Shown here piece by piece: positions 26,706 through 48,065 of a stretch of DNA of 64,000 nt. This DNA comes from a virus. The notes under the pieces are model-generated. The model was not told the origin of the DNA and made no database searches. It worked only from the letters and a program-made list of their open reading frames with translations. The translations under genes were made by a program, and so were the position numbers. Position 1 is the first letter of the stretch. Each line of letters starts with the position of its first letter. The stretch lies in the IMG/VR virus record IMGVR_UViG_3300045988_132920. The stretch is one strand, 5' to 3'.

Positions 26706-27047
26706 ATGGCACATTTTATTAACATAACAGCTGATAAATTAGATATAACTAATTCTGAAGGTAATAACGCAATAGTGTTTCATATCCCTGGTCACTGTGC
26801 TGGGTGTAAAAGAGCTTTAGAGCTCATAAATGAAATGGCTTTTGATGGTAAATTGGCTGATTGGAATTTTTATTTAATTGATGCTGAAAATGATACTAAT
26901 AAAGTACTTATTGATAAATATGAGGCTACTATAGCTCCAACAATTATTACTTTTAAGTCAGGTGTTAAAATGAATAGAACAAATGGTTTAAAAGAGTTTA
27001 TACAACAAAAGGACAAGTTATTTACAAATGAAACTAATGCAAATTGA
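26706..27047 (+). CDS. Thioredoxin/glutaredoxin-like CxxC protein, 113 aa.
   Basis: RBS (taggagacttaaATG). A CAGC motif follows a beta-strand-like VFHIPGH segment, consistent with a thioredoxin-fold active site. Confidence 0.45.
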   Translation: MAHFINITADKLDITNSEGNNAIVFHIPGHCAGCKRALELINEMAFDGKLADWNFYLIDAENDTNKVLIDKYEATIAPTIITFKSGVKMNRTNGLKEFIQQKDKLFTNETNAN

Positions 27048-28392
27048 ATTTGACAAACACATCCCTAATGATGTCATAACTAAAATTCAAACTCTTGTAG
27101 AGGTATTTACTGATGTATACCCTGATAAAGATATTCAATTAGGTATTGTTGGTGGTGCACTACGAGATATTGCATTGGGTATTAAGCCAAGTGATTGGGA
27201 CTTATTCATAGTCGGATTAACTTCAAATGAAGTCATCCAAGCTCTCACTGCTAATACAAAGTGGGAGGCATTTGAGTCAGGACTCAATTTTTCTATTGTA
27301 AGATGGAATCATTGTGAGATTACGGTTATTGAATCATATGATGACCTATGTGAGGATAGAGCAAGACGTGACCTCAGAATAAACTCCCTATACTTGTCTT
27401 ATGATGGTGGTAGTGGCTGGTATCTATCGACTACTACGGAAATTAATAGAGATTTTGAGCAAGGTATTTTAAGCTCAGACGGAGACGTTGATAAAAAGTT
27501 TGCTCAAGACCCTATAAAAATCCTAAGGGTTCTTAGATTCGCAGCCAAATATCACTTTCAAATTGACAGAGATTTGCACTTTGACATTCTAAGGCTAAGA
27601 CACTTAGTTAAAGATAAGGCTATACCTAAGGATAGAATTTTCCATGAGTTAAAGAAGGGATTTACTTGTGGTAATGCTTATGGGTTTGTTAGACTTCTTG
27701 ATGAGTTTGAGTTACTTGAGCATTTCTTCCCAGCAGTACATGCTTTAAAAGGTATAGACGGTGGTCATTATCACAATGAACAAGTGTTTACACATGTTAT
27801 GTTTGCATTAAAAGCACTTGACCCTATTGACCTACCATTTGAAGTAAAACTTGCTGCACTCTACCATGATACTGGTAAGTATCACTGGGAGATTGTTGAC
27901 GGTAAACGTAGATTTGTTGGTCACGATAGACTTGGTAAGTACGCAGCTAAGCAGGACCTTAATAGATTACGTTTTCCTGAGCACATTAAACGTACTGTAA
28001 AGGCTTTAGTTTGGTTTCATATGCACCAGGTAGATGGTAAAAAATCTACACGTAAGCTGGCTATAGGTCTTGGTAAGTTTAATGTACCATTAAAATATTT
28101 CTTTTGGGTAAGATATGCTGATAATATGGGAAGTGCTGTGTATAAAACAGATTTCATGTATTATTGGAAGCTCTATAGACAGGCTCTTAGGTACATTAAT
28201 CCGAAACACGTTCCGTCTGTAAAAGACCTTGTAATAAATGGTCACACAATTATGGAAAAGTTTGGAATTAAACAAGGACCTATTATTGGTAAGGCTTTAA
28301 AGATTCTGTTTAACAAAGTTGAAAATGAAGAACTTGAAAATGAAGAATCTGCTTTATTAGAAGAACTAAAACGACTTTTACCTACACTTTGA
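27028..28392 (+). CDS. cca: tRNA nucleotidyltransferase (CCA-adding enzyme) with an HD domain.
   Basis: Class II nucleotidyltransferase head motif GGALRD (GGxVRD consensus) near the N-terminus. HD-domain motifs H...LYHDTGK follow, as in bacterial CCA-adding enzymes. It sits next to the tRNA array. Confidence 0.85.
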   Translation: MKLMQIEFDKHIPNDVITKIQTLVEVFTDVYPDKDIQLGIVGGALRDIALGIKPSDWDLFIVGLTSNEVIQALTANTKWEAFESGLNFSIVRWNHCEITVIESYDDLCEDRARRDLRINSLYLSYDGGSGWYLSTTTEINRDFEQGILSSDGDVDKKFAQDPIKILRVLRFAAKYHFQIDRDLHFDILRLRHLVKDKAIPKDRIFHELKKGFTCGNAYGFVRLLDEFELLEHFFPAVHALKGIDGGHYHNEQVFTHVMFALKALDPIDLPFEVKLAALYHDTGKYHWEIVDGKRRFVGHDRLGKYAAKQDLNRLRFPEHIKRTVKALVWFHMHQVDGKKSTRKLAIGLGKFNVPLKYFFWVRYADNMGSAVYKTDFMYYWKLYRQALRYINPKHVPSVKDLVINGHTIMEKFGIKQGPIIGKALKILFNKVENEELENEESALLEELKRLLPTL

Positions 28393-28393
28393 G

Positions 28394-28630
28394 GTGATAA
28401 TGGTACTATATTGGTTTAGTTCACGTTATGACCCTGAGGTAGGGCACGCATATACTAATCTACATGACTTAAAGACATTTTGTGTAAATTGGTATAGTGC
28501 CTATGTGTCCCACAGGCTATCTGCATATTCATATCAAGCTGCTATAATGTCTTGTGTGATGCAAAATTATGACAGTATGAACGAATACAGGCTCTATGGT
28601 ATAATTAAGAGAAGTAAATGGTTTCTATAG
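28394..28630 (+). CDS. Hypothetical small protein, 78 aa.
   Basis: ORF coupled to the CCA gene stop, with RBS tgaggtgataATG. Confidence 0.4.
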   Translation: MIMVLYWFSSRYDPEVGHAYTNLHDLKTFCVNWYSAYVSHRLSAYSYQAAIMSCVMQNYDSMNEYRLYGIIKRSKWFL

Positions 28631-28632
28631 GG

Positions 28633-28661
28633 TTGACAATCGTGAAAACATGATGTATAAT
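28633..28661 (+). promoter_or_regulatory. Consensus promoter driving transcription into an ORF-free region of about 600 nt.
   Basis: gggttgaca, 17-nt spacer, tataat at 28656-28661. Confidence 0.6.
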
Positions 28662-29244
28662 AAATATGTACTTTGACAAGACCCATAATGTAAGTTCCGA
28701 TACTAACAGTTACGGATTATCGTATCCATCAGCTCGTTAGTTATGTGGAACCTGATGAAACAGTAAAATTTTCATCAGGGTATACCCAAATTAGCATATC
28801 CCTACGATTGAGTTATTCATAATGCAATAACAACAGGATAGTCTGGGAGGACGGAGTACCCCAGTAGGTCTTATTAAAGTCATATAATTGCACATTAAAA
28901 GTTTAATAGGTAACAACGAACGCATATCCAGTACGAAAGTAGCCCAGGGTTTTGGTACATTCCTCGTAAAGACCCCTGACCTCTATTTCAAGGATGGGCT
29001 TAATTACCCCAAAGGTGCTATAGGGATGGGACTCGTCAGGTTGTAGGACACAGACGACTGTTGTAATACAGTGGATATTACAGACATAGAGCTCAAAGTT
29101 TGTAATGTTTTATTTGGTATTGGTTCGGATTAATACAAAGGAGAAATACGTTTTTATCACCTCGCTGAGTATTAATATACCTATTTTAAATCTTCTACAA
29201 TAACAACCACTTTTACTGTCTGTTCCTTGACAGTATGTATCACA

Positions 29245-29275
29245 AAAAGAGACCCTTATTAGGGTCTCTTTTATG
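29245..29275. terminator. Bidirectional terminator ending the ORF-free transcript (plus) and the HNH gene (minus).
   Basis: Hairpin agagaccc-ttatta-gggtctct flanked by aaaa / tttt. Confidence 0.65.
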
Positions 29276-29693
29276 CGTTACAATTAAGACATCTTTTACC
29301 TTTCTTACGTCCAATTTCAATACCTAGTTCTTGTACAGTCTTTTTAATCATTTGGATATATTTATTACCATCAAATTTTCCAGGAATCTTTACATCTAAA
29401 AACTGGTCAAGATATGCTTTAATCATTGACCAGTCGAGTATTGTATTTAAAGGTTTTGTGCCACGGGCATTGTTCATTTCTTTAGAGGCAAGAGCATAGT
29501 TACTTAGAACAGACCTCCCTCCCTCACTTGCTGGCTTAAGATGTTCCAGCGATACATTGTTGACATTAATACCCTCTCCGTAGATTCCACGTTTGACAGT
29601 AGGTAACTTACCCTTCTTAAATAAAGTTTTTAATTCACTTTGGTATGAGCCAAAGCTCACTTGAGTTCCAGGTTGTACCTTGCTAACAGACAT
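29271..29693 (-). CDS. HNH-family endonuclease.
   Basis: Motifs SLEHLKPASEGG...NYALASKEMNNARG (His-Asn-His core with N spacing) and a C-terminal CLNC zinc-finger-like pair. It is a free-standing minus-strand gene between the CCA gene and the tRNA array. Confidence 0.7.
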   Translation of the reverse strand: MSVSKVQPGTQVSFGSYQSELKTLFKKGKLPTVKRGIYGEGINVNNVSLEHLKPASEGGRSVLSNYALASKEMNNARGTKPLNTILDWSMIKAYLDQFLDVKIPGKFDGNKYIQMIKKTVQELGIEIGRKKGKRCLNCNA

Positions 29694-29742
29694 TTATCAA
29701 CCTCATATTTTGTTATCATGTTACAATTTATTACAAGTGGGG

Positions 29743-29769
29743 TTGACATTAAAATTAATCTGTGATAAT
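29743..29769 (+). promoter_or_regulatory. Promoter at the head of the tRNA island.
   Basis: ggggttgacat...tgtgataat (extended -10). A second promoter lies at 30065-30093 (ttgaca-17-tatagt), just upstream of tRNA-Glu. Confidence 0.55.
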
Positions 29770-30064
29770 ATGAGATTATATTATAGGAAGCACACAACAA
29801 AGGATAAATTAAAAGTATGCAACTACTCAATACAGTGAAACAATTTAATAGCTGGAATATGGATTGCTCTCGTGATGAACATAGAGCATATTCACCTGCG
29901 GTTATTATATTAGGCACTGAGTTGCTGGGTGGTAGCAGATATATCCGAAGTTAAAGTTTGATTAACTTATAATAGATTTCAAAGATGCTACCTAGAGACC
30001 AAAAGAATCAAAGGTAGCATTTTTAGTTAGTACATTGACAATTTCATAGTAATACTCATAAGAA

Positions 30065-30093
30065 ACATATTGGGTTGACATATTCAACTTTTT
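30065..30093 (+). promoter_or_regulatory. Promoter immediately upstream of the first tRNA, tRNA-Glu.
   Basis: gggttgaca, 17-nt spacer tattcaactttttatga, tatagt. Confidence 0.55.
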
Positions 30094-30158
30094 ATGATAT
30101 AGTAGATAGTGTTGGAAGCAAGCCAATAAAAAACAGCACTTTGACACTATCTATATAT

Positions 30159-30234
30159 GCGGCTATCGTCTAATCGGTCAGGACGTCACCCTTTCAAGGT
30201 GGAAACGAGGGTTCAAACCCCTCTAGCCGTACCA
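30159..30234 (+). tRNA. tRNA-Glu (anticodon TTC).
   Basis: Cloverleaf read by eye: acceptor gcggcta/tagccgt, anticodon loop cTTTCaa, T-arm gaggg-ttcaaac-ccctc, CCA encoded. Confidence 0.8.
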
Positions 30235-30239
30235 TTTAT

Positions 30240-30314
30240 GGGGCATTAGTTCAGTTTGGTTAGAACATTGCACTGTCACTGCAAAGGTCAGGGATTCGAG
30301 CTCCCTATGCCCCG
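30240..30314 (+). tRNA. tRNA-Asp (anticodon GTC).
   Basis: Acceptor ggggcat/atgcccc, anticodon stem ttgca/tgcaa with loop ctGTCac, T-arm aggga-ttcgagc-tccct. Confidence 0.8.
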
Positions 30315-30550
30315 ATTTTAAAGTCTTATGACCTTGTTGTTATAGTCTGTGGATGGTTGCAAACTGAATCAGACCGAAATGGTACAAAGGACAGAAGTAG
30401 AGGTGCTCCTCTACCTGCATAGACCTACCCAGTTCTCAGTAATGGAATTGTATACTACGTTAACTTGTTGGCTGGTCACTAGGTGCAACTTTGACTAACA
30501 TATGCAGAGTTCAGTAGGTTCGACTCCTACCAAGGTTTTCAGTTTGTTAT

Positions 30551-30625
30551 GGGTCTGTAGCTCAATGGTGGAGCAGGGGACTCATAATCCCTTGGTTACA
30601 GGTTCGACTCCTGTCAGACCCACCA
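30551..30625 (+). tRNA. tRNA-Met (anticodon CAT).
   Basis: Acceptor gggtctg/cagaccc, anticodon loop ctCATaa, T-arm acagg-ttcgact-cctgt, CCA. Confidence 0.8.
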
Positions 30626-31075
30626 AGATTGAAAAGTTATTGTTCACTCGGTCTTTTCTTTGACTCCTTGTGGATTGTTAAAAGACCCACCTAGCTAGGG
30701 GATGGAATATACTAGGGTCCGTTAAGAGATTGTTGGACGTACGTGAAAACCGTATAAATACAAAAATCCATTACAGGTGAAAGTGCAACGGTGCACAGCT
30801 CTGGCTCATAACCAGGCACAGCCAAGCCCTTTTTTTGAAGGAACAACTTAGGTAGCCGTTCGACTCGGCAATATCCTGTATTGAATTCGGGTTGGTAACC
30901 TTTTCACTCATGATGTAGTGTTTGTGCTTGCAAGACGAACACTAAGTAGTGGACTCAGGGTGTGGTCTGAGGGGAAACAACACATAAACGGTACCGACTG
31001 AACTTAACGACTCCGAAGCAGTATAAACATTGGAGGGTCCGTTTGTGGGAGTTTTATAGTCAAACTTCCACACAT

Positions 31076-31151
31076 GCCGAAGTAGCTCAAATGGTAGAGC
31101 AGCTCACTTGTAATGAGACGGTTGTGGGTTCAAGTCCTGCCTTCGGCACCA
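31076..31151 (+). tRNA. tRNA-Thr (anticodon TGT).
   Basis: Acceptor gccgaag/cttcggc, loop ctTGTaa, T-arm ttcaagt, CCA. Confidence 0.75.
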
Positions 31152-31155
31152 ATAT

Positions 31156-31262
31156 TTGATGCTTTAGTTTAAGATTCCCTATCAGTATACTAGTTAGCAT
31201 AGGGAGAAGGCGAAAATACAGGTCCGCAAGCCTGAGATGTTAGTTCGACTCTAGCAAGTATC
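31156..31262 (+). ncRNA. Aberrant tRNA-like element of about 105 nt (7-bp acceptor-like pairing, T-arm gttag-ttcgact-ctagc, internal 7-bp hairpin, non-7-nt anticodon loop).
   Basis: gatgctt pairs with aagtatc and a canonical T-arm is present. The total length and an inserted tccctat...ataggga hairpin do not fit a standard cloverleaf. Possible insertion-containing or degenerate tRNA. Confidence 0.3.
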
Positions 31263-31275
31263 ATCAATTACTTAA

Positions 31276-31350
31276 TGGCAAGTAGCTCAATGGCAGAGCT
31301 CTCGGCTGTTAACCGAGCGGTTGGAGGTTCGAGTCCTCTCTTGCCAGCCA
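31276..31350 (+). tRNA. tRNA-Asn (anticodon GTT).
   Basis: Acceptor tggcaag/cttgcca, loop ctGTTaa, T-arm ggagg-ttcgagt-cctct, CCA. Confidence 0.8.
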
Positions 31351-31372
31351 ATTAACATAAAAGGAGATTAAT

Positions 31373-31630
31373 ATGTACCGATTAGTTAGAGCTTGGAAAG
31401 TCTGGAGAAATAAGAATAAATACAAGAATTCACCAGAATCAATTAAACAGGACATCTATGAGATAATAACGACTAAGTTATTTAAACAACCTCAAGAATG
31501 TCTAAGAGCTTTAGATGAATTTGAAGGTATAGTAAGTTATGACTATGATTCTAAGGGTAATTTTGAAGCAGTATTAGCTAGTGGTACAAAAATTAAGGTT
31601 TGTGTAACTTTAACAACTATTGAAATATAG
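31373..31630 (+). CDS. Hypothetical small basic protein, 85 aa.
   Basis: RBS (aaaggagattaatATG) directly after tRNA-Asn. Confidence 0.55.
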   Translation: MYRLVRAWKVWRNKNKYKNSPESIKQDIYEIITTKLFKQPQECLRALDEFEGIVSYDYDSKGNFEAVLASGTKIKVCVTLTTIEI

Positions 31631-31737
31631 GTGAGAGCCGAATATCAGTTGGTCGGACGTGTCTGTAAAACATGTGCCTAATAAGCCGTTGGGGGTGCAA
31701 CTCCCTTCTCACCTACCATATAATGAAAGGAACTCTT

Positions 31738-32046
31738 ATGAAGTTATTAATGTCTTTATTAGCATTAAGTTTGATGACATCTTCCGTATATGCTCAGAAT
31801 TACTTTCAAACACAAGGTCTTTCTAAGGAAGTTGTTAGTACAGATGACATTATAAATATGTGTAATTACTGTTCACATCATTATTTTATATACAACGTAA
31901 ATCATAAGTATAGATATAAAGTTATTTATGATAATGAGCTTAAATGTAATAATGACTATAATGCACTAGTGCTAAAAATGCAAAATGATGAATATAGTAA
32001 ATGTATAAAGCACGGTGGTGGTACTGCTTGTGCATTACGAAAATAG
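31738..32046 (+). CDS. Secreted small Cys-containing protein, about 102 aa with signal peptide. Paralogue of 34607..34885.
   Basis: Start reassigned to ATG 31738 (RBS gaaagga). Signal peptide MKLLMSLLALSLMTSSVYAQ. C-terminal motif SKCIKHGGGTACALRK. Confidence 0.6.
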   Translation: MKLLMSLLALSLMTSSVYAQNYFQTQGLSKEVVSTDDIINMCNYCSHHYFIYNVNHKYRYKVIYDNELKCNNDYNALVLKMQNDEYSKCIKHGGGTACALRK

Positions 32047-32203
32047 CTTAAGGGAACTGCGGTCCTGAAAACACTAAAAGGCATGCTCCATTACAGAAAA
32101 TCCTAGGTAAGAACCATATTTTAGTGTCAAACTGGCAGAGCTGTAAGTCTAGCTAACTTATAGGAAGTTTAGCAGGGTGGTGTCTGAAAACCCTGTAATC
32201 ATG

Positions 32204-32278
32204 GGGGCACATGTACCAAGGTGGCGAGATTCCCTTGCAAGGAAACTGTGGTGAGTTCGATTCTCATTGTCTCCACCA
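32204..32278 (+). tRNA. tRNA-Ala (anticodon TGC), weak D-arm.
   Basis: Acceptor gggggca/tgtctcc with G-U pairs, anticodon loop ctTGCaa, T-arm gtgag-ttcgatt-ctcat, CCA. D-stem pairing is poor. Confidence 0.5.
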
Positions 32279-32342
32279 ATTAAAACAAACTAATAGGAGA
32301 ATACAAATGAAACTTAAATCACGATGGTGTAATAAACAATAT

Positions 32343-32418
32343 GCGTGTATAGTTTAATGGTTTAGAATTCTGGTCTCCAAAACCAGAGATGTAGGTTCGA
32401 TTCCTGCTACACGTGCCA
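32343..32418 (+). tRNA. tRNA-Trp (anticodon CCA).
   Basis: Acceptor gcgtgta/tacacgt, anticodon stem ctggt/accag with loop ctCCAaa, T-arm ttcgatt, CCA. Confidence 0.8.
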
Positions 32419-32422
32419 ATAC

Positions 32423-32495
32423 GGGTGTGGAGCTCGGTTGGTTGAGCAGCTGGCTTTTAACCAGTTGGTTGCAGGTTCGATTCCTGTCGCACCCA
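32423..32495 (+). tRNA. tRNA-Lys (anticodon TTT).
   Basis: Acceptor gggtgtg/cgcaccc, loop ctTTTaa, T-arm gcagg-ttcgatt-cctgt. No encoded CCA. Confidence 0.75.
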
Positions 32496-32522
32496 ATTTT
32501 TACATAAAAAGGAGAATAAATT

Positions 32523-32756
32523 ATGGCAGTTTTTGCAGTAGCATTAAACAATGAAGGCTATGGATGTGGGTTTTACATCTGGCAAGCCGAAGACGAAGAA
32601 GCTCTTATAGCAGACCTTAAAAAAGAGTGGAATCGAGACCCAGACAATGATGTAGTACAAGCCTGGATAGATGAAGAATGGTTATTCTTCTCAAAAATTG
32701 ATGAAGAAGCATTTAAAGGTGAAAACTATTTTGAGGTATATAATAACTTCTCTTAA
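32523..32756 (+). CDS. Hypothetical small acidic protein, 77 aa.
   Basis: RBS (aaaggagaataaattATG). Its end abuts tRNA-Val. Confidence 0.55.
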   Translation: MAVFAVALNNEGYGCGFYIWQAEDEEALIADLKKEWNRDPDNDVVQAWIDEEWLFFSKIDEEAFKGENYFEVYNNFS

Positions 32757-32832
32757 GCTCGCTTAACTCAATCGGTAGAGTGTCTCCCTTACAAGGAGGA
32801 AGTTGTAGGTTCGAGTCCTACAGCGAGCACCA
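32757..32832 (+). tRNA. tRNA-Val (anticodon TAC).
   Basis: Acceptor gctcgct/agcgagc, loop ctTACaa, T-arm gtagg-ttcgagt-cctac, CCA. Confidence 0.8.
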
Positions 32833-32877
32833 TATTTGTTAAATTTTAATAGGTATAACAAGTATGGAGACAATATA

Positions 32878-33210
32878 ATGGCAGAATTATTTACAGCAGT
32901 TGAAGCTAAAGAAATCACAGATGCAGCATGTGATAAATATGCTGAAATCGTAAGAATAATCAAAGATAAAGCTGCAAACAAACAGTACGAAGTATTATTC
33001 ACAAACGAAGAAGTGTCTGATGAAATCTTTACTAAACTAAGAGAAGGCGGTTTCTACATCAATAGAGCAGCTCGTGGAGTTGTTATTGCGTGGGATACTG
33101 CTGTTAATGCAGACGACAAAAAAGAAGAAGTTACTACACCAGACCCTGGTAAAGAAGAAGATGGTAGTCAAGGCGGTAATGAGCAAGGTGAAGACCAAGT
33201 TACTGAATAG
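32878..33210 (+). CDS. Hypothetical protein with an acidic C-terminus, about 110 aa.
   Basis: Start reassigned to ATG 32878 (RBS ggagacaatataATG). A terminator hairpin at 33231-33262 follows. Confidence 0.55.
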   Translation: MAELFTAVEAKEITDAACDKYAEIVRIIKDKAANKQYEVLFTNEEVSDEIFTKLREGGFYINRAARGVVIAWDTAVNADDKKEEVTTPDPGKEEDGSQGGNEQGEDQVTE

Positions 33211-33265
33211 TCTGCAACTCAAAATCAAATAGGTTTGGAAGGAGCCTAATAGGCTCCTTCCTTAT

Positions 33266-33341
33266 GCCGAGGTAGCTCAGTTGGTAGAGCACCTGTCTGA
33301 AGAACAGGGTGTCACTGGTTCAATTCCAGTCCTCGGCACCA
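33266..33341 (+). tRNA. tRNA-Phe (anticodon GAA).
   Basis: Acceptor gccgagg/cctcggc, D-arm gctcagttggtagagc, loop ctGAAga, T-arm actgg-ttcaatt-ccagt, CCA. Confidence 0.85.
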
Positions 33342-33442
33342 TTTAAAAGTTTGGGTGGTCGTCTAAGTAAAGGACACGAAAATCGAAAATGATGGGGATT
33401 TATTAAGTGACGTCACATATTCAACCTATCCCACCCACCCAT

Positions 33443-33519
33443 ATCCTCGTAGCTCAATAGGACAGAGCATGGAGCTTCTACCTCCAGTGTTGGGGGTTCG
33501 ATTCCCTCCGAGGATGCCA
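33443..33519 (+). tRNA. tRNA-Arg (anticodon TCT).
   Basis: Acceptor atcctcg/cgaggat, loop ctTCTac, T-arm ggggg-ttcgatt-ccctc, CCA. Confidence 0.75.
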
Positions 33520-33606
33520 CTAAGAATCACATGCTAAATGAAGGCTACTCACGGACCAATAAGTAGGTCAGATGAGTTCTGGAGGTCCCACGTGGACTTC
33601 CATTAT

Positions 33607-33680
33607 GCGGATATAGTTTAAAGGTAAAATTCCTCCTTGCCATGGAGATGTTGCGAGTTCGATTCTCGCTATCCGCTCCA
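33607..33680 (+). tRNA. tRNA-Gly (anticodon GCC).
   Basis: Acceptor gcggata/tatccgc, loop ttGCCat, T-arm gcgag-ttcgatt-ctcgc, CCA. Confidence 0.8.
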
Positions 33681-33707
33681 ATAAATAAAAACGAAAGGAA
33701 CACAATT

Positions 33708-33992
33708 ATGATTGATGCAAACTTAGCCGTGCTTGATAAATTAGAAGACCTTATTAAATGTGATGGTAGGTTAACAATTACTTTAAACAAAACGGATTTA
33801 ATGGTTCTCCATAGTGCAATCCATAGTGAAAAGGTTTATATAGATAAACTTTTTAAAGGTTTTGCAGAAGGTGATAATGATGGAGCTGATTTAGATAGCT
33901 TTTGTCAATTACTCGGAGAAATTAGAGCTGACTCTGTTTCAGATATGGAGACAATTATACAAACTATAGTTAATAGAATTTTAGAAACTTAA
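33708..33992 (+). CDS. Hypothetical small protein, about 94 aa.
   Basis: Start reassigned to ATG 33708 (RBS aaacgaaaggaac). The track's 33642 start would overlap tRNA-Gly. Confidence 0.55.
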   Translation: MIDANLAVLDKLEDLIKCDGRLTITLNKTDLMVLHSAIHSEKVYIDKLFKGFAEGDNDGADLDSFCQLLGEIRADSVSDMETIIQTIVNRILET

Positions 33993-34001
33993 CTATATTA
34001 T

Positions 34002-34076
34002 TGCGAATATGGTCTAAAGGCTATGATTTCTGGCTTCCAACCAGACGGTCAGGGTTCGATTCCCTGTATTCGCTCC
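34002..34076 (+). tRNA. tRNA-Gly (anticodon TCC).
   Basis: Acceptor gcgaata/tattcgc, anticodon stem tctgg/ccaga with loop ctTCCaa, T-arm caggg-ttcgatt-ccctg, CCA. Confidence 0.8.
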
Positions 34077-34254
34077 ATTCCAGGTTGCTTAGTTAGCATA
34101 GGTCATACCAAGTGCACAGTATGGCTATGGGTAGGAATAACTCCCTACCCTAACTGGAAGCAACCTATGTCGTAGGACCACGTACAGTGGAGTGCTTGTA
34201 TGAAGAAGCTGCGTGGATAGTATAACAGACATTAAACTCCTTTGGTAGATATGA

Positions 34255-34331
34255 GTCTGGGTAGTCAAATTGGTAGAGACAGGGGACTTAAAATCCTCGT
34301 TTTGTGGGTTCGACTCCCACCCTAGACACCA
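34255..34331 (+). tRNA. tRNA with anticodon TAA (Leu, UUA) but a short class-I variable loop.
   Basis: Acceptor gtctggg/cctagac, anticodon stem gggga/tcctc with loop ctTAAaa, 5-nt variable loop, T-arm gtggg-ttcgact-cccac, A73, CCA. Confidence 0.65.
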
Positions 34332-34335
34332 ATAA

Positions 34336-34412
34336 GCCCCTGTAGTCAAATAGGTAAAGACGGCTGCCTTAGAAGCAGTGTTCTGCGAGTTCGACTCTCG
34401 CTGGGGGCACCA
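34336..34412 (+). tRNA. tRNA with anticodon TAG (Leu, CUA) and a short variable loop.
   Basis: Acceptor gcccctg/tgggggc, loop ctTAGaa, T-arm gcgag-ttcgact-ctcgc, A73, CCA. Confidence 0.65.
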
Positions 34413-34417
34413 ATTAT

Positions 34418-34492
34418 ACCCTTGTAGGCTAACGGAGAAACCGCAACACTACGAATGTTGAGTTCTAGGTTCGATTCCTAGTGGGGGTACCA
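34418..34492 (+). tRNA. tRNA-Arg (anticodon ACG).
   Basis: Anticodon stem caaca/tgttg with loop ctACGaa, T-arm ctagg-ttcgatt-cctag, acceptor with G-U pairs, CCA. Confidence 0.65.
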
Positions 34493-34493
34493 T

Positions 34494-34566
34494 GCCAGTA
34501 TGATGGAATGGTATACATACCAAGCTCAAACCTTGGGTTCTGCAAGTTCGACTCTTGCTACTGGCA
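34494..34566 (+). tRNA. tRNA with anticodon CAA (Leu, UUG) and a short variable loop.
   Basis: Acceptor gccagta/tactggc, anticodon stem ccaag/cttgg with loop ctCAAac, T-arm gcaag-ttcgact-cttgc, A73. No encoded CCA. Confidence 0.65.
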
Positions 34567-34606
34567 TTAGGTTGACAATGTTAAGTTAATATGATATATT
34601 TCTTGT

Positions 34607-34885
34607 ATGAAAAAGACTATTTTACTTACAATGATTTTATTAATGGGGACTGTTACATTAGCAGACGATTGGTATACAAACCCATCAAGTCCTACAAATG
34701 TAATGATGAATCCAATGAATGCTTGGCATCCAGCTAATATTTATCACAACACTGTACTTAACCCTTATAAATACTATGAGGAAGAAGACAGTTATGACAG
34801 AGCTACTAGAATTAAGACTAAGAAGTACAACTCTTGCGTGAAGTATGGTGGTGGAGATGCGTGCAGAAGTATATTAAATAACTAG
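34607..34885 (+). CDS. Secreted small Cys-containing protein, 92 aa with signal peptide. Paralogue of 31738..32046. Probably expressed from a leaderless mRNA.
   Basis: Signal peptide MKKTILLTMILLMGTVTLA. C-terminal NSCVKYGGGDACRSILNN. Promoter ttgaca 34572-34577, tatatt 34595-34600, which places the transcription start at about the ATG. Confidence 0.6.
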   Translation: MKKTILLTMILLMGTVTLADDWYTNPSSPTNVMMNPMNAWHPANIYHNTVLNPYKYYEEEDSYDRATRIKTKKYNSCVKYGGGDACRSILNN

Positions 34886-34958
34886 GTGTAGTGCAGTTTG
34901 GTAGCATGCCTGTTTTGGGAACAGGCGGTCGGGGGTTCAAATCCCTCCACCTAGACCA
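34882..34958 (+). tRNA. tRNA-Pro (anticodon TGG).
   Basis: Acceptor ctaggtg/cacctag, anticodon stem cctgt/acagg with loop ttTGGga, T-arm ggggg-ttcaaat-ccctc, CCA. Confidence 0.75.
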
Positions 34959-34963
34959 ATTAA

Positions 34964-35035
34964 TCCCCGATAGTTTAATCGGCAGAACATCTGATTTTGG
35001 TTCAGAAGGTCGAGGTTCGAGTCCTTGTTGGGGAA
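34964..35035 (+). tRNA. tRNA-Gln (anticodon TTG).
   Basis: Acceptor tccccga/ttgggga, anticodon stem tctga/tcaga with loop ttTTGgt, T-arm cgagg-ttcgagt-ccttg. Confidence 0.65.
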
Positions 35036-35108
35036 TTTTAACTTGGGTTGACAGATATTCAATTTAATGATATAATAACGAAGTAAACATACGAAAAAGG
35101 AAATACAT

Positions 35109-36140
35109 ATGACAACAGAACTTGTAACAAATGAGGATTTGTTCTACTCTTATCCGTCTATTGAAAATTCTTATAGGGAAGAATTCATCAATAAGATTTA
35201 TGCTCACGGATACGGAGATGAACGTTACTACGTAACTGAAAAAATCCATGGCTCAAACACGCAGCTCTCTTATGATGGTAATGAATTCAAGTATGGCACA
35301 CGTAGCCATTATCTTATTGAGAATGAGAAATGCTATAACGTACAGCCCTTACTTGACAAAGTTAAACCTGTATTAGAAGCTGAATACAAAAGATTGAAAG
35401 AAGACGTACCAACCTTAAGAAATGTTATTATCTATGGTGAGGTGTATGGTGGATGCTATCCACACCCTGATGTAAAGGTAAATAATCATGCTTCTAAAGT
35501 ACAAAAAGGTGTTTACTACTCACCTAATAATGAATGGTCAGCATTTGATTTTTGCTATGTAGATGATAATGGTAAGCACTTTTATACAGGTTCACAATTC
35601 ATTAAACTGTGTCAAGTAAATAACATTAGCACTACACCTGTATTAGCTATTGTTAATACACTAAAAGAAGCACTTGAGTTTAATAACGCAGGTGAGTCTA
35701 CCATAGGTCCACTTCTAGGGTACCCTGAGCTTGAAAATAACACTATGGAAGGGGTTGTAATTAAACCCCTTGATAAAGACCTCTGGATGGGTCAAACTCG
35801 TGTAGTAATCAAGAACAAAAATGATAAGTTCAAAGAAAAATCACACGAAAAGAAAGTAAACATCCAAATTGAACTACCAGAGTGTGTTACAAAGGCTTTG
35901 GAGGCTTCTGTACCCTATATAAATGAGAATCGTGTAAATAACGTTATTTCTCATTTAGGTGAAGTGACCTATAAGGACACAGGACGAATCATTGGTGAGA
36001 CTAACAAAGATGTTCTTGCAGTGATTCAAGATGAAGTACCTGAGTATAATCTTATGGAAAAGCAAGAACGTAAGCAATTTACAAAGTTGCTAAATAACGA
36101 AGTTGCTAAAGTTGTACGTAAGGTGATGCAGGTACGTTAA
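35109..36140 (+). CDS. RNA ligase of the T4 Rnl2 family.
   Basis: N-terminal YPSIENSYREEFINKIYAHG and the nucleotidyltransferase motif I TEKIHGSN (T4 Rnl2: EKIHGTN). Later motifs RVVIKNKNDKFKEK and YINENRVNNVISHLGEV closely parallel T4 Rnl2. Promoter ttgaca 35048-35053, tataat 35071-35076. Confidence 0.85.
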   Translation: MTTELVTNEDLFYSYPSIENSYREEFINKIYAHGYGDERYYVTEKIHGSNTQLSYDGNEFKYGTRSHYLIENEKCYNVQPLLDKVKPVLEAEYKRLKEDVPTLRNVIIYGEVYGGCYPHPDVKVNNHASKVQKGVYYSPNNEWSAFDFCYVDDNGKHFYTGSQFIKLCQVNNISTTPVLAIVNTLKEALEFNNAGESTIGPLLGYPELENNTMEGVVIKPLDKDLWMGQTRVVIKNKNDKFKEKSHEKKVNIQIELPECVTKALEASVPYINENRVNNVISHLGEVTYKDTGRIIGETNKDVLAVIQDEVPEYNLMEKQERKQFTKLLNNEVAKVVRKVMQVR

Positions 36141-36173
36141 TCAGGGTAAATTACCCTGATTATGCACCCTTAG

Positions 36174-36248
36174 CCAAGTGGTCAAGGCGGAGGTCTGCAA
36201 AACCTCTATCGTTGGTTCAAATCCAACAGGGTGCTCCATTTGGAGAGT
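36174..36248 (+). tRNA. tRNA-Cys (anticodon GCA).
   Basis: Acceptor gcaccct/agggtgc, anticodon stem gaggt/acctc with loop ctGCAaa, T-arm gttgg-ttcaaat-ccaac, CCA. Confidence 0.8.
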
Positions 36249-36351
36249 AAACTTCAGGGGTCTGAAGGCTGGTTTGCTAAACCAAGTGTTCACGTAAGTG
36301 GATGAGTTTCAAGTACTCTGCTCTCCTCCATTTATAACAAAGGAATAAGTT

Positions 36352-36732
36352 ATGATATATACAGGTTATTTTGCTAAAACAAAAGAATATGAGGCAGCAG
36401 GACTATTCCCTATAGGTGTTGCTGGTAAAACTCCAGATTTCTTTAAGAATATGGTTTGGAGAGATGTAGCACCAAGATGGGACCACTTTAAACGGTGGAA
36501 ATCTGGTGAGATAGATAACTTTCAATATTCTGAACTTTATACAACTATGCTCAACAAGCTAGATAAAGAAGATACAAGGAAGTTTATCCAAGAGCTTCTT
36601 CAGATTAATGAGAATATCATATTCTTATGTTATGAAAAACCAGGTACTTTCTGTCATAGACACATACTAGCAGATTGGCTAGAATCTGAGATAGGAGTGG
36701 GACCTGTTGATGAATATAAATTGGAGGTGTAA
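36352..36732 (+). CDS. DUF488 (YeaO-like) family protein.
   Basis: The C-terminal FCHRHILADWLES matches the DUF488 signature (CHR...LADWL). The N-terminus MIYTGYFAK fits the family. Confidence 0.45.
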   Translation: MIYTGYFAKTKEYEAAGLFPIGVAGKTPDFFKNMVWRDVAPRWDHFKRWKSGEIDNFQYSELYTTMLNKLDKEDTRKFIQELLQINENIIFLCYEKPGTFCHRHILADWLESEIGVGPVDEYKLEV

Positions 36733-36815
36733 CCCTAATTGGTAAGGGGGTAGTCTTGAAAACTACTAGTAGTCGGGAAACTGACGTGCTGGTTCGAGTC
36801 CAGTCACCTCCTCCA
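36724..36815 (+). tRNA. tRNA-Ser (anticodon TGA), class II with a long variable arm.
   Basis: Acceptor ggaggtg/cacctcc, anticodon stem gtagt/actac with loop ctTGAaa, long variable arm agtcgggaaactgac, T-arm ttcgagt, CCA. It overlaps the stop of 36352..36732. Confidence 0.8.
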
Positions 36816-36832
36816 GTATAGAAAGGACAAAT

Positions 36833-37192
36833 ATGTCACTTCAAGAAAACCTAGCATACTTAATGGAGTTCAACTACAAAAAGCTATTTAAAGGTGTTCC
36901 TAAAAATTACTATTTGTCTAAGGAGGACAGGCAAGAGCTATTAGATGCTATTGAATGTGCTCAAGAGACTTTTGGTAGGCAACATGGTGACTTTATCTTG
37001 GCAGATGGTAAGTTTACTCCCCACAAAGCACTTGAGTTTTGTAATGTTCGCTGCACAGATACTGTTGAAGAAGCAATTTGTAATTACGTACTTGCTGCAT
37101 TGAATCCAAAATATTCAGAGTACGAACAATTTGTTCAGTATACAGTAGATGAACTAAAAAAGTATGAGAATGGGTACAGAAATAAGAAATAA
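36833..37192 (+). CDS. Hypothetical protein, 119 aa.
   Basis: RBS (agaaaggacaaatATG). Confidence 0.55.
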   Translation: MSLQENLAYLMEFNYKKLFKGVPKNYYLSKEDRQELLDAIECAQETFGRQHGDFILADGKFTPHKALEFCNVRCTDTVEEAICNYVLAALNPKYSEYEQFVQYTVDELKKYENGYRNKK

Positions 37193-37265
37193 TGCTGGGT
37201 GTCCGAGTGGTTTAGGAGCTGCACTCATACCGCAGTTTACGTGGGTTCAAATCCCACCTCAGCAA
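37193..37265 (+). tRNA. tRNA with a CAT anticodon (Met/fMet or lysidine-Ile type), second copy.
   Basis: Acceptor tgctggg/ctcagca, anticodon loop ctCATac, T-arm gtggg-ttcaaat-cccac. The last anticodon-stem pair is mismatched. Confidence 0.55.
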
Positions 37266-37286
37266 TTATTTATGAATGGGGTCGTG

Positions 37287-37363
37287 GCAATGTAATGTGT
37301 CGTTAGCTCAGTTTGGTTAGAGCCCTGGATTGTGGTTCCAGTTGCATGGGTTCAAATCCCATA
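37287..37363 (+). tRNA. tRNA-His (anticodon GTG).
   Basis: Acceptor gtgtcgt/acgacac, anticodon stem ctgga/tccag with loop ttGTGgt, T-arm atggg-ttcaaat-cccat, CCA. Confidence 0.8.
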
Positions 37364-37478
37364 CGACACCCCATTTATAGAGTTTAGGTAAGGTCTACAT
37401 CACCTTCGGTAGCGAGTCGACACTACTGAAAATGGCAGTCGGGAGTGAGGCAACGACTAAAATATTTCTCACGAACAT

Positions 37479-37553
37479 GGTCTTGTAGCTCAGCGGTAGA
37501 GCACTCGGCTGATAACCGAGAGGTCGAAGGGTCAGCACCTTCCAAGACCACCA
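37479..37553 (+). tRNA. tRNA-Ile (anticodon GAT).
   Basis: Acceptor ggtcttg/caagacc, D-arm gctcagcggtagagc, anticodon stem ctcgg/ccgag with loop ctGATaa, CCA. Non-canonical T-loop gtcagca. Confidence 0.75.
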
Positions 37554-37596
37554 TTATTACTATGAAATTGTATATTCTAACTCATGGAGGGACAAA

Positions 37597-38250
37597 ATGA
37601 CACTTGACCATACTGTGAGACTTTTTAATACTACAATCAATGAGGCTTTTGCTGAGCTTAAAGAGCATCATGTACAGCCCGATTGTATTATTACCCATAT
37701 AAACAACAACTGCTTTGGTGGTGAAATTACCATTGAAAAAATGAGAGACCTTGGCGAAAGATTCAAAGATGTTCTTATTGGTCAAGGTCATATTTATTTG
37801 TATATTGATGATATTCAAGACTTAGGTATAGTCATGGTAGGCATGCAAGAAGCTGGGTTAACGTTTAAGAATATCCTAACAATACCTTACACAGATAAGA
37901 TAGTACAAGCTGGATGTAACACACGTAAATACTTTGATGGTGCTGTAAAACGAGTGTTATACTTTACTAAGTATGAAGGACATTTCTTAAACCATACAAA
38001 ACTATTTATTAAAATAAAGGCTACTAGTATGCACCCTGCTGTGTGGAATTGGTTTAAGGGTACAATCTCAGACTCTTACAAAAATATCATGCAAATATCT
38101 ACTCAGCACGCAGATACAATACTTGACCCATTTATGTTAACTGATGCCATTGGTAAAGCAACTGTTGAGGCAGACAGACACTACATCGGAATCAACCCTG
38201 GAAAAAATTTTAACGATATAAAGCATAGCTTAGAAATGTTACAAGTTTAA
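37597..38250 (+). CDS. Hypothetical protein, 217 aa.
   Basis: RBS (ggagggacaaaATG) after tRNA-Ile. Confidence 0.6.
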   Translation: MTLDHTVRLFNTTINEAFAELKEHHVQPDCIITHINNNCFGGEITIEKMRDLGERFKDVLIGQGHIYLYIDDIQDLGIVMVGMQEAGLTFKNILTIPYTDKIVQAGCNTRKYFDGAVKRVLYFTKYEGHFLNHTKLFIKIKATSMHPAVWNWFKGTISDSYKNIMQISTQHADTILDPFMLTDAIGKATVEADRHYIGINPGKNFNDIKHSLEMLQV

Positions 38251-38548
38251 GGGGTTGACAAATAAATTATCTTATGTTATTATATTTATATAAGGCAAAC
38301 GTCAGGCTAAGTAATCTACAGAACGGTCTGGTGGCAGATATAATTGCCAAGAGCCTCACTATACCGTTGCCGAGCGGTTCTTACATATGGTGAGACAACT
38401 CAGGAGATTGAGACCTCGTGTAAGAAGGTAGCTATTATAGCAAAAAAAAACATCAACTCCACGTTGTAGATAACCTCGCATAAGGGAACGAAAGACCTTG
38501 TTCAACATGCAGCTGACCAGTGAACAGCTTACCAAACACTGGACGTAG

Positions 38549-38622
38549 CGGAGTGGAGCAGTAGTAGCTCGCCAGTCTCATAAGCTGGAGGTCGTGGGTG
38601 CAACTCCCACCTCTCGCAACCA
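38549..38622 (+). ncRNA. tRNA-like element with a CAT anticodon loop but imperfect acceptor stem (possible third CAT tRNA or pseudo-tRNA).
   Basis: Anticodon stem ccagt/gctgg with loop ctCATaa, T-arm gtggg-tgcaact-cccac. Acceptor pairing is poor and the 3' end reads ...aacca. A roughly 250-nt ORF-free leader and a promoter lie upstream; a terminator follows. Confidence 0.4.
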
Positions 38623-46880: not shown

Positions 46881-48065
46881 ATGAAAGCAATTAAAACAAA
46901 TAAGAATTCAATTTTGTCATGGGCAAAAGAGATTGAAGAACCAGCATTAAAACAATTAATTAATGCTGCTGAGCACCCTTGTATTAACATGCCTGTAGCT
47001 GTGTGTCCAGATGTACATGCAGGATTTGGTGTAACTATTGGCTGTGTACTTCCAGTAACAGATGCACTAATCCCAAATGCTGTAGGTGTGGATATTGGAT
47101 GCTCAATGTCAGCAGCTAAAACAAATATTCGTGTAGAAGATGTATCAACAGAACTATTAAAGAAGATTGTTGGTGGAGCTAAAGGTTACCCAGGAGGTAT
47201 TAGAGCTAATATCCCTGTAGGACAAAGCCACCACAAAACAAAACAAGACCACCATATCTTTGCTAACAGAGATATGTGGAATGACACAATAGTTTGTGCA
47301 CAAGAACTTGAATCAGCACAATACCAGTTAGGAACAATGGGTGGTGGAAATCACTTTATTGAACTACAAGCTGGAGATGATGGTTTCTTGTATTACATGA
47401 TTCACTCAGGCTCACGTAACTTAGGGTACAAAGTGGGGCAGTATTATGATAAACTTGCTAAAGACTTGTGCAGCAAGTACAAGCAAGATAGAGTAGTACA
47501 AGATGACTTAGCTTTCTTACCAAGAGGTACAAAAGAGTTTGATATGTACTTTAAAGAAATGAATTTGTGCTTGCAGTTTGCCAAAGCAAACCATGAACGT
47601 ATGCAAGAAATCTTAGATGGAATTTTGAGACATTATATTCCTGAAATTGCATTTACTAAACGTTGGTATACAAGGCACAACTATGCAGCTATTGAAAACC
47701 ATAAAGGTGTAAACTACTTTATACATAGGAAGGGTGCTATAAGAGCACGTGTGGGTGATGAACAAATTATCCCTGGCTCACAAGGTACAGCTTCTTATAT
47801 AGTAGAAGGCTTAGGTAATGTGGATTCATATTGCTCAGCTTCACATGGTTCAGGTAGAGTAATGTCAAGAAGGCAGGCAACAGCTTCTTTAAATCTTGCA
47901 GAAGAACAAAAGAAGATGGAAGGTATTGTTCATAACATGACTACTAACAAGCAGTTAGATGAAGCACCTTCAGCTTATAAAGACATTGAAGACGTATTAA
48001 AGCAAGAAGCAGACTTAGTGAATAAAATTGTTAAGTTAAAGCCTATTGCTGTAGTGAAGGAGTAA
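46881..48065 (+). CDS. rtcB: RtcB RNA 3'-phosphate / 2',3'-cyclic-phosphate ligase.
   Basis: Near-canonical RtcB blocks: CPDVHAGFG, AVGVDIGCSM, GGNHFIE, HSGSRNLG, HRKGA, IIPGSQG, SASHGSGRVMSR and SAYKDIEDV. These run collinear with E. coli RtcB motifs over the full length. Promoter ttgaca 46819-46824, tattat 46842-46847. Confidence 0.9.
   Translation: MKAIKTNKNSILSWAKEIEEPALKQLINAAEHPCINMPVAVCPDVHAGFGVTIGCVLPVTDALIPNAVGVDIGCSMSAAKTNIRVEDVSTELLKKIVGGAKGYPGGIRANIPVGQSHHKTKQDHHIFANRDMWNDTIVCAQELESAQYQLGTMGGGNHFIELQAGDDGFLYYMIHSGSRNLGYKVGQYYDKLAKDLCSKYKQDRVVQDDLAFLPRGTKEFDMYFKEMNLCLQFAKANHERMQEILDGILRHYIPEIAFTKRWYTRHNYAAIENHKGVNYFIHRKGAIRARVGDEQIIPGSQGTASYIVEGLGNVDSYCSASHGSGRVMSRRQATASLNLAEEQKKMEGIVHNMTTNKQLDEAPSAYKDIEDVLKQEADLVNKIVKLKPIAVVKE

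Follow-up and report, generated by a model that had tools for sequence, protein, structure and literature searches.

Three leucine tRNA genes with short variable loops

The 64,000-nucleotide (nt) stretch of viral DNA, IMG/VR record IMGVR_UViG_3300045988_132920 (the window), carries on its + strand an array of 25 tRNA genes (30159–38618; found by ARAGORN, with 24 of them called by Rfam), and three of these genes combine a leucine anticodon with a short variable loop. tRNA-Leu(UAA) lies at 34255–34331 and tRNA-Leu(UAG) at 34336–34412, both on the + strand; each is 77 nt long, has A73 and encodes its own CCA end. tRNA-Leu(CAA), on the same strand at 34494–34566, has A73 and no encoded CCA, the next letters being TTA. 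The tRNA finders used, ARAGORN and Infernal with the Rfam model RF00005 (gathering score 29 bits), recognise all three as class I tRNAs. Infernal scores are 59.8 bits for Leu(UAA), which is matched over its full length, 62.2 bits for Leu(UAG) and 57.6 bits for Leu(CAA), with model positions 1–71 covered, E-values of about 1e-12 and maximal posterior probabilities in every case. The two programs differ on the limits of Leu(CAA): ARAGORN extends it to 34493–34567 by one extra pair, which gives an acceptor stem of 8 base pairs (bp), and Infernal places it at 34494–34566 with a 7-bp stem, in agreement with the coordinates of the first-pass annotation. The 8-bp stem is an over-extension.

In Leu(UAA), the acceptor stem is GUCUGGG/CCUAGAC, the 3-bp D stem GUC/GAC, the D loop AAAUUGGUAGA and the variable loop GUUUU. 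Leu(UAG) has a 3-bp D stem GUC/GAC, the D loop AAAUAGGUAAA, the variable loop GUUCU, and A37 rather than G37. Leu(CAA) is built from the acceptor stem GCCAGUA/UACUGGC, the 3-bp D stem AUG/CAU, the D loop GAAUGGUAUA and the variable loop GUUCU. Common to all three are a 7-nt anticodon loop of the form CU-NNN-A-N with U33, a 5-bp T arm with the loop UUCGACU, a 3-bp D stem with a 10–11-nt D loop, a 5-nt variable loop and A73.

The first-pass annotation of this region had described class I tRNAs with the leucine anticodons TAA, TAG and CAA, 5-nt variable loops, canonical acceptor and T arms and A73, and each of these features is present in the cloverleaf on which ARAGORN and Infernal agree. If type I (armless) tRNA-Leu is taken to mean a leucine anticodon, a variable loop of 4–6 nt and A73, all three genes belong to this type; with loops of 5 nt, none of them has class II architecture, that is, a long variable arm. 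It might be objected that the fold itself is wrong, and that either a long arm is hidden or the anticodon loop should be read in a different register. However, only 73–74 nt precede CCA, counted to the discriminator, which leaves no room for a long arm in any of the three, neither program proposes an alternative anticodon register, and the two agree at maximal posterior probabilities. We therefore reject this objection, to which we assign a negligible probability.

Leucine identity

Leucyl-tRNA synthetase (LeuRS) does not read the anticodon, so that a leucine anticodon alone is no proof of leucine identity. The identity set of bacterial LeuRS comprises A73, U8:A14, A15-U48, and G18G19 with A20a at the elbow, and the set of the E. 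coli-type enzyme excludes both the anticodon and the long arm (PMC9976931; PMC6614811). All three genes have the full set (U8, A14, A15-U48, G18G19, A20a and A73), and the T-loop nucleotides U54, U55, C56 and A58 are likewise intact.

A comparison of isotype with anticodon was run as a home-made test, in which one hidden Markov model (HMM) per isotype was built from 807 phage tRNAs of the IMG/VR sample described below, with the anticodon and the variable region deleted. The Leu HMM was trained on long-arm phage tRNA-Leu only. (Nearest-neighbour classing of tRNA bodies had misassigned several controls and was replaced by these models.) Leucine came out on top for all three genes: Leu(UAA) scored 46.5 bits against 35.0 for the next isotype (Tyr; margin 11.5), Leu(UAG) 41.8 bits against 33.3 (Glu; margin 8.5) and Leu(CAA) 34.0 bits against 17.4 (Met; margin 16.6). 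Short tRNA-Leu of other origin also gave their best score with the Leu HMM, namely those of T5, the Mycobacterium phage Fezzik and a Vibrio phage, as well as 40 of the 44 in the IMG/VR sample. The combination of a 3-bp D stem with a 10–11-nt D loop is characteristic of leucine among phage tRNAs: it is present in 95% of phage tRNA-Leu and in 85% of tRNA-Cys, and its frequency in other isotypes with short variable loops is 0–35%.

Two ways of understanding these genes had been left side by side in the first-pass annotation: unusual leucine tRNAs, or tRNAs whose identity differs from their anticodon. The complete identity set, together with the best score against a long-arm leucine profile with anticodon and variable region masked, speaks for the former. 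Under the latter, the three tRNAs would be charged with another amino acid or would serve as recoding or suppressor tRNAs, a view that could appeal to a class I shape atypical for leucine and to a synthetase indifferent to the anticodon. Nevertheless, the leucine profile remains the best one with the anticodon masked, A73 and a leucine-type D arm are present, and the open reading frames (ORFs) of the phage read normally with the standard code and show ordinary leucine codon use. We thus regard a different identity as highly improbable, also in view of the related phages described below.

Individual candidate identities were rejected as well. For alanine, all three genes have C-G at pair 3:70 and thus lack the G3:U70 determinant; for serine, the long arm on which seryl-tRNA synthetase (SerRS) would rely is missing; for histidine, there is no extra G before position 1. 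Identities set by synthetases that read the anticodon are excluded by the leucine anticodons themselves.

The leucine codons of the phage are TTA (41%), CTT (27%), CTA (15%), TTG (11%), CTG (4%) and CTC (3%). Since the UAA, CAA and UAG anticodons serve the most-used leucine codons, the three tRNAs fit the demand.

Distribution in phages and bacteria

The phage has no close sequenced isolate: a megablast search with the region returned no match among 50,697 phage records. An exact 33-nt stretch of Leu(UAA) was not found in IMG/VR. With sensitive blastn, the leucine genes of the window matched 334 records. Leu(UAA) aligns over 61 nt to the annotated tRNA-Leu of T5-like phages with 82% identity, and Leu(UAG) aligns over 62 nt, with 82.5% identity, to tRNA-Leu from Mycobacterium phages of the Fezzik/LeBron group. 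The matched genes are short as well: that of T5_ev212 has 77 nt, those of Fezzik 74–75 nt, and Vibrio phage vB_ValS_X1 has two of 77 nt.

A wider sample was drawn from IMG/VR with a pattern that admits either class (D loop GGTANA, anticodon loop CTYAR, T loop GTTCRANTC, free gap of 16–34 nt). Among the matches listed, ARAGORN classed 44 of 174 tRNA-Leu, in 32 loci, as short (74–78 nt), and this share of 25% is only indicative, the sample being the first 120 of at least 120 matching loci and not a random draw. In the same loci, tRNA-Ser always has 84–94 nt and tRNA-Tyr, with one exception, 82–93 nt. The first-pass annotation had started from class II as the normal state of tRNA-Leu in bacteria and phages, which is overstated: long arms do prevail in the sample, but about a quarter of its tRNA-Leu, as well as both tRNA-Leu genes of T5, are class I.

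Bacterial and archaeal genomes, one per species, were scanned with a spacing that admits class I only, which again gave at least 120 loci. Among the matches listed, at least 165 short tRNA-Leu are present in 118 of 120 genome loci. In at least 76 of the genome loci, mostly of Actinomycetota, the short tRNA-Leu gene is solitary and has the anticodon CAA or UAA; the genera include Bifidobacterium, Gardnerella, Micromonospora, Salinispora, Nocardiopsis and Thermobifida. This setting corresponds to that of the published type I tRNA-Leu(CAA) of Streptomyces coelicolor, and its range extends far beyond Streptomyces. The solitary actinobacterial genes, which are found among genome loci L125–L244 (for example L129, L134, L138, L169, L182 and L189), have the D arm UCC-CAAUUGGUAGA-GGA and variable loops such as CAGUG. 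The other genome loci are dense arrays of 14–32 tRNAs within 8 kb, in metagenome-assembled genomes of many phyla, and are most simply explained as prophages or phage contigs.

Conservation and covariation of short phage tRNA-Leu

An alignment of 51 distinct short phage tRNA-Leu (from the window, T5, Fezzik, the Vibrio phage and the IMG/VR set) has U8, A14, G18, G19, A20a, U33, A35, C56, A58 and A73 invariant, and A15 in at least 90% of the sequences. For the 21 pairs of the class I cloverleaf with the tertiary 15-48 pair, 97.8% of the cells are paired, compared with 62.2% after shuffling and 35–46% when the partner is slid by 1–3 columns. Compensatory substitutions, with both partners changed, occur in all 21 pairs. 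At 0.959, the covariation score exceeds that of shuffled alignments (0.244), and none of 500 shuffles attained it. The tertiary 15-48 pair is AU in 49 sequences and GC in two. Judging from these sequences, the class I fold is under selection.

The conservation bears on yet another explanation, according to which the three genes are decaying or non-translational tRNA-like elements, such as pseudogenes, enzyme decoys or recombination sites. Such an origin might account for the missing CCA of Leu(CAA), for D stems of only 3 bp and for minimum-energy folds that are not cloverleaves. Indeed, single-sequence folding yields rod-like minimum-energy structures for Leu(UAA) and Leu(UAG), and only Leu(CAA) has a z-score below -2 (-2.95). 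Nonetheless, the Infernal scores are as high as those of neighbouring tRNAs, the conserved tertiary nucleotides are intact, and compensatory changes keep all stems, both in the 51 sequences and within the phage's own clade. Moreover, a 3-bp D stem is normal for tRNA-Leu, and a gene for a CCA-adding enzyme adjoins the array. Decay is therefore very unlikely in our view.

When the variable region is removed, a long-arm tRNA-Leu is the nearest neighbour of 18 of 50 short ones in the IMG/VR sample, a pattern consistent with repeated loss of the arm, although about 70 nt give little resolution. Position 13 splits the short tRNA-Leu into two forms, one with a purine and one with C13, and the three genes of the window, like those of T5, have purine 13. 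Every long-arm tRNA-Leu of the sample also has a purine here; C13 is restricted to 16 of the 50 short ones and to the actinobacterial genes. The leucine tRNAs that T5 brings into E. coli are all armless, with a D loop nearly identical to that of E. coli tRNA-Leu, and this suggests that the purine-13 form is the one compatible with E. coli LeuRS.

Position 37 varies too. In phage tRNA-Leu with NAG anticodons (IMG/VR loci L004–L123), it is G in 19 and A in 17 long-arm genes, and A in 17 and G in four armless ones. Bacterial leucine tRNAs that read CUN codons normally have G37; A37 would preclude m1G37 (1-methylguanosine at this position).

Related jumbo phages

Relatives of the phage were found through homologues of its CCA-adding enzyme, whose gene (27028–28392) immediately precedes the array. 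The homologues are 98% and 40–48% identical to it and lie on contigs of 45–239 kb. A search with the Rnl2-type RNA ligase encoded inside the array returned five loci at 31–37% identity, with no tRNAs nearby. The gene order is conserved among the relatives: a RecD2-like helicase, a leucine-rich repeat protein, the CCA-adding enzyme (syntenic throughout) and the tRNA array. The window and its relatives look like a clade of jumbo phages.

The relative at 98% identity (L254) keeps the Leu-Leu-Arg-Leu block. Its Leu(UAA) differs from that of the window by one D-loop change and by the replacement of G28 with A, which turns a G.U pair of the anticodon stem into A-U. Two more distant relatives, with CCA-adding enzymes 40% (L250) and 46% (L253) identical to that of the window, have a 76-nt Leu(UAA) and a 78-nt Leu(UAG), respectively. 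Both are identical to Leu(CAA) of the window in the D arm, UG AUG GAAU(UU)GGUAUA CAU, and in the T arm, GCAAG UUCGA(C/G)U CUUGC, and their differences from it in the acceptor and anticodon stems are fully compensated. One armless body thus carries CAA, UAA or UAG, all of them leucine anticodons, in three related phages. This would be expected if LeuRS ignores the anticodon, and it is hard to reconcile with any other identity of these tRNAs.

Long-arm tRNA-Leu are present in the clade as well, namely Leu(UAG) of 85 nt in L250 and Leu(UAA) of 84 nt in L255. The long Leu(UAG) of L250 and the short one of L253 both lie upstream of tRNA-His, which follows directly in L250 and about 0.8 kb downstream in L253, and they share the 5′ acceptor strand GCGGGUA. 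Given the shared position and acceptor strand, the presence of the arm differs between likely orthologues.

The tRNA array and the tRNA-repair genes

Between the second and third leucine genes lies tRNA-Arg(ACG) (34418–34492, + strand), a class I tRNA with a 4-bp D stem that is not part of the phenomenon. The array provides its own internal control in tRNA-Ser(UGA) (36723–36815, + strand), which both ARAGORN and Infernal find as a class II tRNA of 93 nt, in agreement with the long arm noted for it in the first-pass annotation. Its discriminator is U73, compared with the usual bacterial G73. tRNA-Tyr(GUA) (31629–31718, + strand) has 90 nt and a 15-nt variable region, and its RF00005 score is weak (31.8 bits). 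It is odd in having the T loop UGCAACU instead of the consensus UUCRANU and a variable region, GCCUAAUAAGCCGUU, without an obvious stem, and it dropped out through the filters of the larger searches.

CCA is encoded in 18 of the 24 tRNA genes called by Rfam. The six genes without it are those for Asp, Lys, Leu(CAA), Gln and two Met(CAU), at 30240–30314, 32423–32495, 34494–34566, 34964–35035, 37193–37265 and 38548–38618. This mixed state fits the presence of the phage CCA-adding enzyme (27028–28392, + strand), a protein with an HD domain that belongs to PHROG 2244 and matches Pfam PolyA_pol, PolyA_pol_RNAbd, HD and tRNA_NucTran2_2; it could finish the 3′ ends of the six tRNAs, Leu(CAA) included.

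The Rnl2-type RNA ligase is encoded inside the array (35109–36140, + strand; Pfam RNA_ligase, 1.2e-21, and T4_Rnl2_C, 4.6e-13), and an RtcB RNA ligase further downstream (46881–48065, + strand; Pfam RtcB, 5.3e-94). The RtcB family joins 2′,3′-cyclic-phosphate and 5′-OH ends. Together with the CCA-adding enzyme, the two ligases make up a tRNA-repair set, which implies that the phage is exposed to tRNA damage. Neither a LeuRS nor any other aminoacyl-tRNA synthetase is present among the large ORFs of the window. A protein with a DUF488-N3a domain is also encoded inside the array (36352–36732), and the relatives L250 and L254 have the same CCA-adding enzyme, Rnl2-type ligase, RtcB and DUF488-N3a genes. 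The ORF at 49441–50289, on the - strand of an otherwise + strand region, contains a T5orf172/MUG113 domain and is possibly homing-endonuclease-like.

No transfer-messenger RNA (tmRNA) was found in the window by ARAGORN or by Rfam at the gathering and E<=1 thresholds, nor by ARAGORN in L254. The stretch of about 1.5 kb from the region of the CCA-adding enzyme to the first tRNA (28630–30159) is free of sizeable + strand ORFs and matches nothing in Rfam, and the corresponding position is occupied by a tmRNA in other relatives. There, it lies between the CCA-adding enzyme and the array (L250, 11917–12304; L253, 12879–13272; also L255 and L257) and encodes the tag peptide ANNVIKADFGYRTAIAA or ANNVVRADFGSKAMAIAA. 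The arrays of two relatives contain IS605 OrfB/TnpB-like (Cas12f-like) genes (L255, 14190–15350; L257, 17273–18445).

Discussion

Our results make it likely that the three genes encode functional leucine isoacceptors of the armless type I, which would be charged by the host LeuRS and for which the long arm would be dispensable. Their D arm and core are those of class II tRNA-Leu in bacteria, with a 5-nt loop in place of the variable arm of 13–15 nt, and the host LeuRS would charge them through A73 and the geometry of the D arm and elbow. Since bacterial LeuRS uses neither the anticodon nor the long arm, the arm may have become dispensable and been lost, probably more than once. Matters differ for the other two class II isotypes. 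Structures of bacterial tyrosyl-tRNA synthetase with its tRNA reveal that this enzyme uses the long variable arm. For SerRS, the use of the arm is established (PMC9976931). The tRNA-Ser and tRNA-Tyr of the same arrays may thus keep their arms because their synthetases use them. A precedent for charging without the arm comes from E. coli, where tRNA-Leu variants devoid of the anticodon and variable arms are still charged, as summarised in PMC9976931 from its reference 53. It is from sequence that we infer leucine charging, the enzyme responsible and the reason for the arm loss, and as to the last of these, relaxed constraint is favoured over a specific adaptation.

Several observations weigh against this interpretation. 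In vitro, the type I tRNA-Leu of S. coelicolor was not a substrate for E. coli LeuRS, whose leucine-specific domain has been reported to favour a large variable loop (PMC6614811). Given this rejection, not every bacterial LeuRS takes every armless tRNA-Leu, and acceptance by the LeuRS of this phage's host cannot be assumed. Folding energies are another such point, as the cloverleaves of Leu(UAA) and Leu(UAG) lie 2–4 kcal/mol higher than the minimum-energy fold, although such a gap is frequent in tRNAs. Finally, armless tRNA-Leu tend to occur in larger arrays, with a median of 12.5 compared with 5.5 tRNAs per locus among the IMG/VR matches listed, which is not obviously explained by relaxed constraint alone.

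The larger arrays count in favour of a rival explanation, escape from a host nuclease, which the first-pass annotation had raised. The loss of the arm would then be a selected counter-defence: a toxin or nuclease that grips the long arm would disable class II tRNA-Leu during infection, and the armless phage copies would escape it and sustain translation. We consider this rather unlikely, and no less so for its variant in which the loss is recurrent, phages with large tRNA arrays and tRNA-repair enzymes substitute armless copies for the class II tRNA-Leu of the host, and the arm-reading factor is either encoded by the host (a MenT/AbiEii-like nucleotidyltransferase, a Schlafen-like or another RNase) or by the phage. 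A phage-encoded factor of this kind, if it exists, could destroy the host tRNA-Leu while sparing the phage's own. We know of no nuclease that recognises the long arm of tRNA-Leu; cleavage of host tRNA-Leu during T-even infection has reportedly been seen, and can serve as a lead only. The literature searched contained no nuclease or toxin that acts on tRNA-Leu via its arm. There are, nevertheless, partial parallels. The toxin MenT3 depends on the long variable loop of tRNA-Ser and has weak activity on tRNA-Leu and tRNA-Tyr (PMC11162799). Among Schlafen proteins, human SLFN11 cuts type II tRNAs and bacterial members take part in phage defence, according to work cited in PMC13056530. There are phage tRNAs that escape anticodon nucleases (PMC10264068), and the CCA-adding enzyme, Rnl2-type ligase and RtcB of the phage point to pressure from tRNA damage. 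On the other hand, the tRNA-Ser and tRNA-Tyr of the same arrays keep their long arms, and the clade relatives L250 and L255 still carry long-arm tRNA-Leu. Solitary chromosomal armless tRNA-Leu in Actinomycetota also indicate that such tRNAs are viable without a phage-defence setting.

Functional armless isoacceptors charged by the host LeuRS, the reading that we prefer, have their closest counterpart in T5 (Tequintavirus, LR597659.1). It has exactly two tRNA-Leu, UAG and UAA, and both are class I genes of 77 nt, as are Leu(UAA) and Leu(UAG) of the window. The two T5 genes have a 3-bp D stem, the D loop GAAUUGG(U/C)AUA, the variable loop GUUUU, A73 and encoded CCA. Its tRNA-Ser (89–95 nt) and tRNA-Tyr (91 nt) keep long arms, as do those of the window. 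T5 differs in belonging to an unrelated family, Demerecviridae, in its enterobacterial host and in having no CAA isoacceptor. According to hybridisation and charging work of the 1970s, T5 tRNA-Leu is said to accept leucine. The T5 tRNAs are listed in PMC4810235.

The type I tRNA-Leu(CAA) of S. coelicolor is another natural armless tRNA-Leu with A73 and U8:A14; it is leucylated by ScoLeuRS, an enzyme of the bacterial type, with A73 and U8:A14 as identity elements (PMC6614811). It differs from the window genes in being chromosomal and in that its charging relies on the leucine-specific domain of its cognate LeuRS (PMC6614811). The solitary actinobacterial genes have C13 and variable loops such as CAGUG, whereas those of the window have purine 13 and GUUYU.

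With the class II tRNA-Leu of E. coli, the window genes share A73, U8:A14, A15-U48, G18G19, A20a, a 3-bp D stem and a purine13:A22 mismatch, and they differ from it in having 5 nt in place of a 13–15-nt variable stem-loop. The D loop AAUUGGUAGA of Leu(UAA) is what we take to be the E. coli tRNA-Leu D loop. The engineered minimal E. coli tRNA-Leu mentioned above, described in PMC9976931 (its reference 53) as charged without the arm given A73 and the D/T-loop contacts, is artificial, in contrast to the natural and complete decoders of the window. Animal mitochondrial tRNA-Leu have short variable loops too, with A73 and A14 as identity elements (PMC9976931), but these are reduced, floppy structures served by a dedicated mitochondrial LeuRS and show no sequence relationship to the window genes. 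Defence-evading phage tRNAs (PMC10264068), such as T5 tRNA-Lys against PARIS (PMC11464382), resemble those of the window in being phage replacements with tRNA-repair genes nearby. However, the known ones alter the anticodon loop and not the variable arm, so that the likeness is only a lead.

Armless tRNA-Leu as such are already known from animal mitochondria and S. coelicolor and are present, unremarked, in the GenBank annotation of T5. A 2023 review regards the long arm as universal outside animal mitochondria (PMC9976931), and S. coelicolor (PMC6614811) is the only bacterial exception that we found in print. The literature searched contained no description of armless phage tRNA-Leu, including the missing arm in T5. 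Under-reported, it seems, is the scale of the phenomenon in phages and Actinobacteria, of which the trio in the window is a solid but unexceptional example.

For annotation, this means that class I tRNA-Leu should be allowed for, both in isotype models and in length filters. The finding also bears on the co-evolution of LeuRS and its tRNAs, as the E. coli enzyme does not accept the Streptomyces tRNA, and yet E. coli is infected by T5, all of whose tRNA-Leu are armless. T5 in E. coli offers a tractable system in which to ask whether loss of the arm is neutral or protective in the conflict between phages and their hosts over tRNAs.

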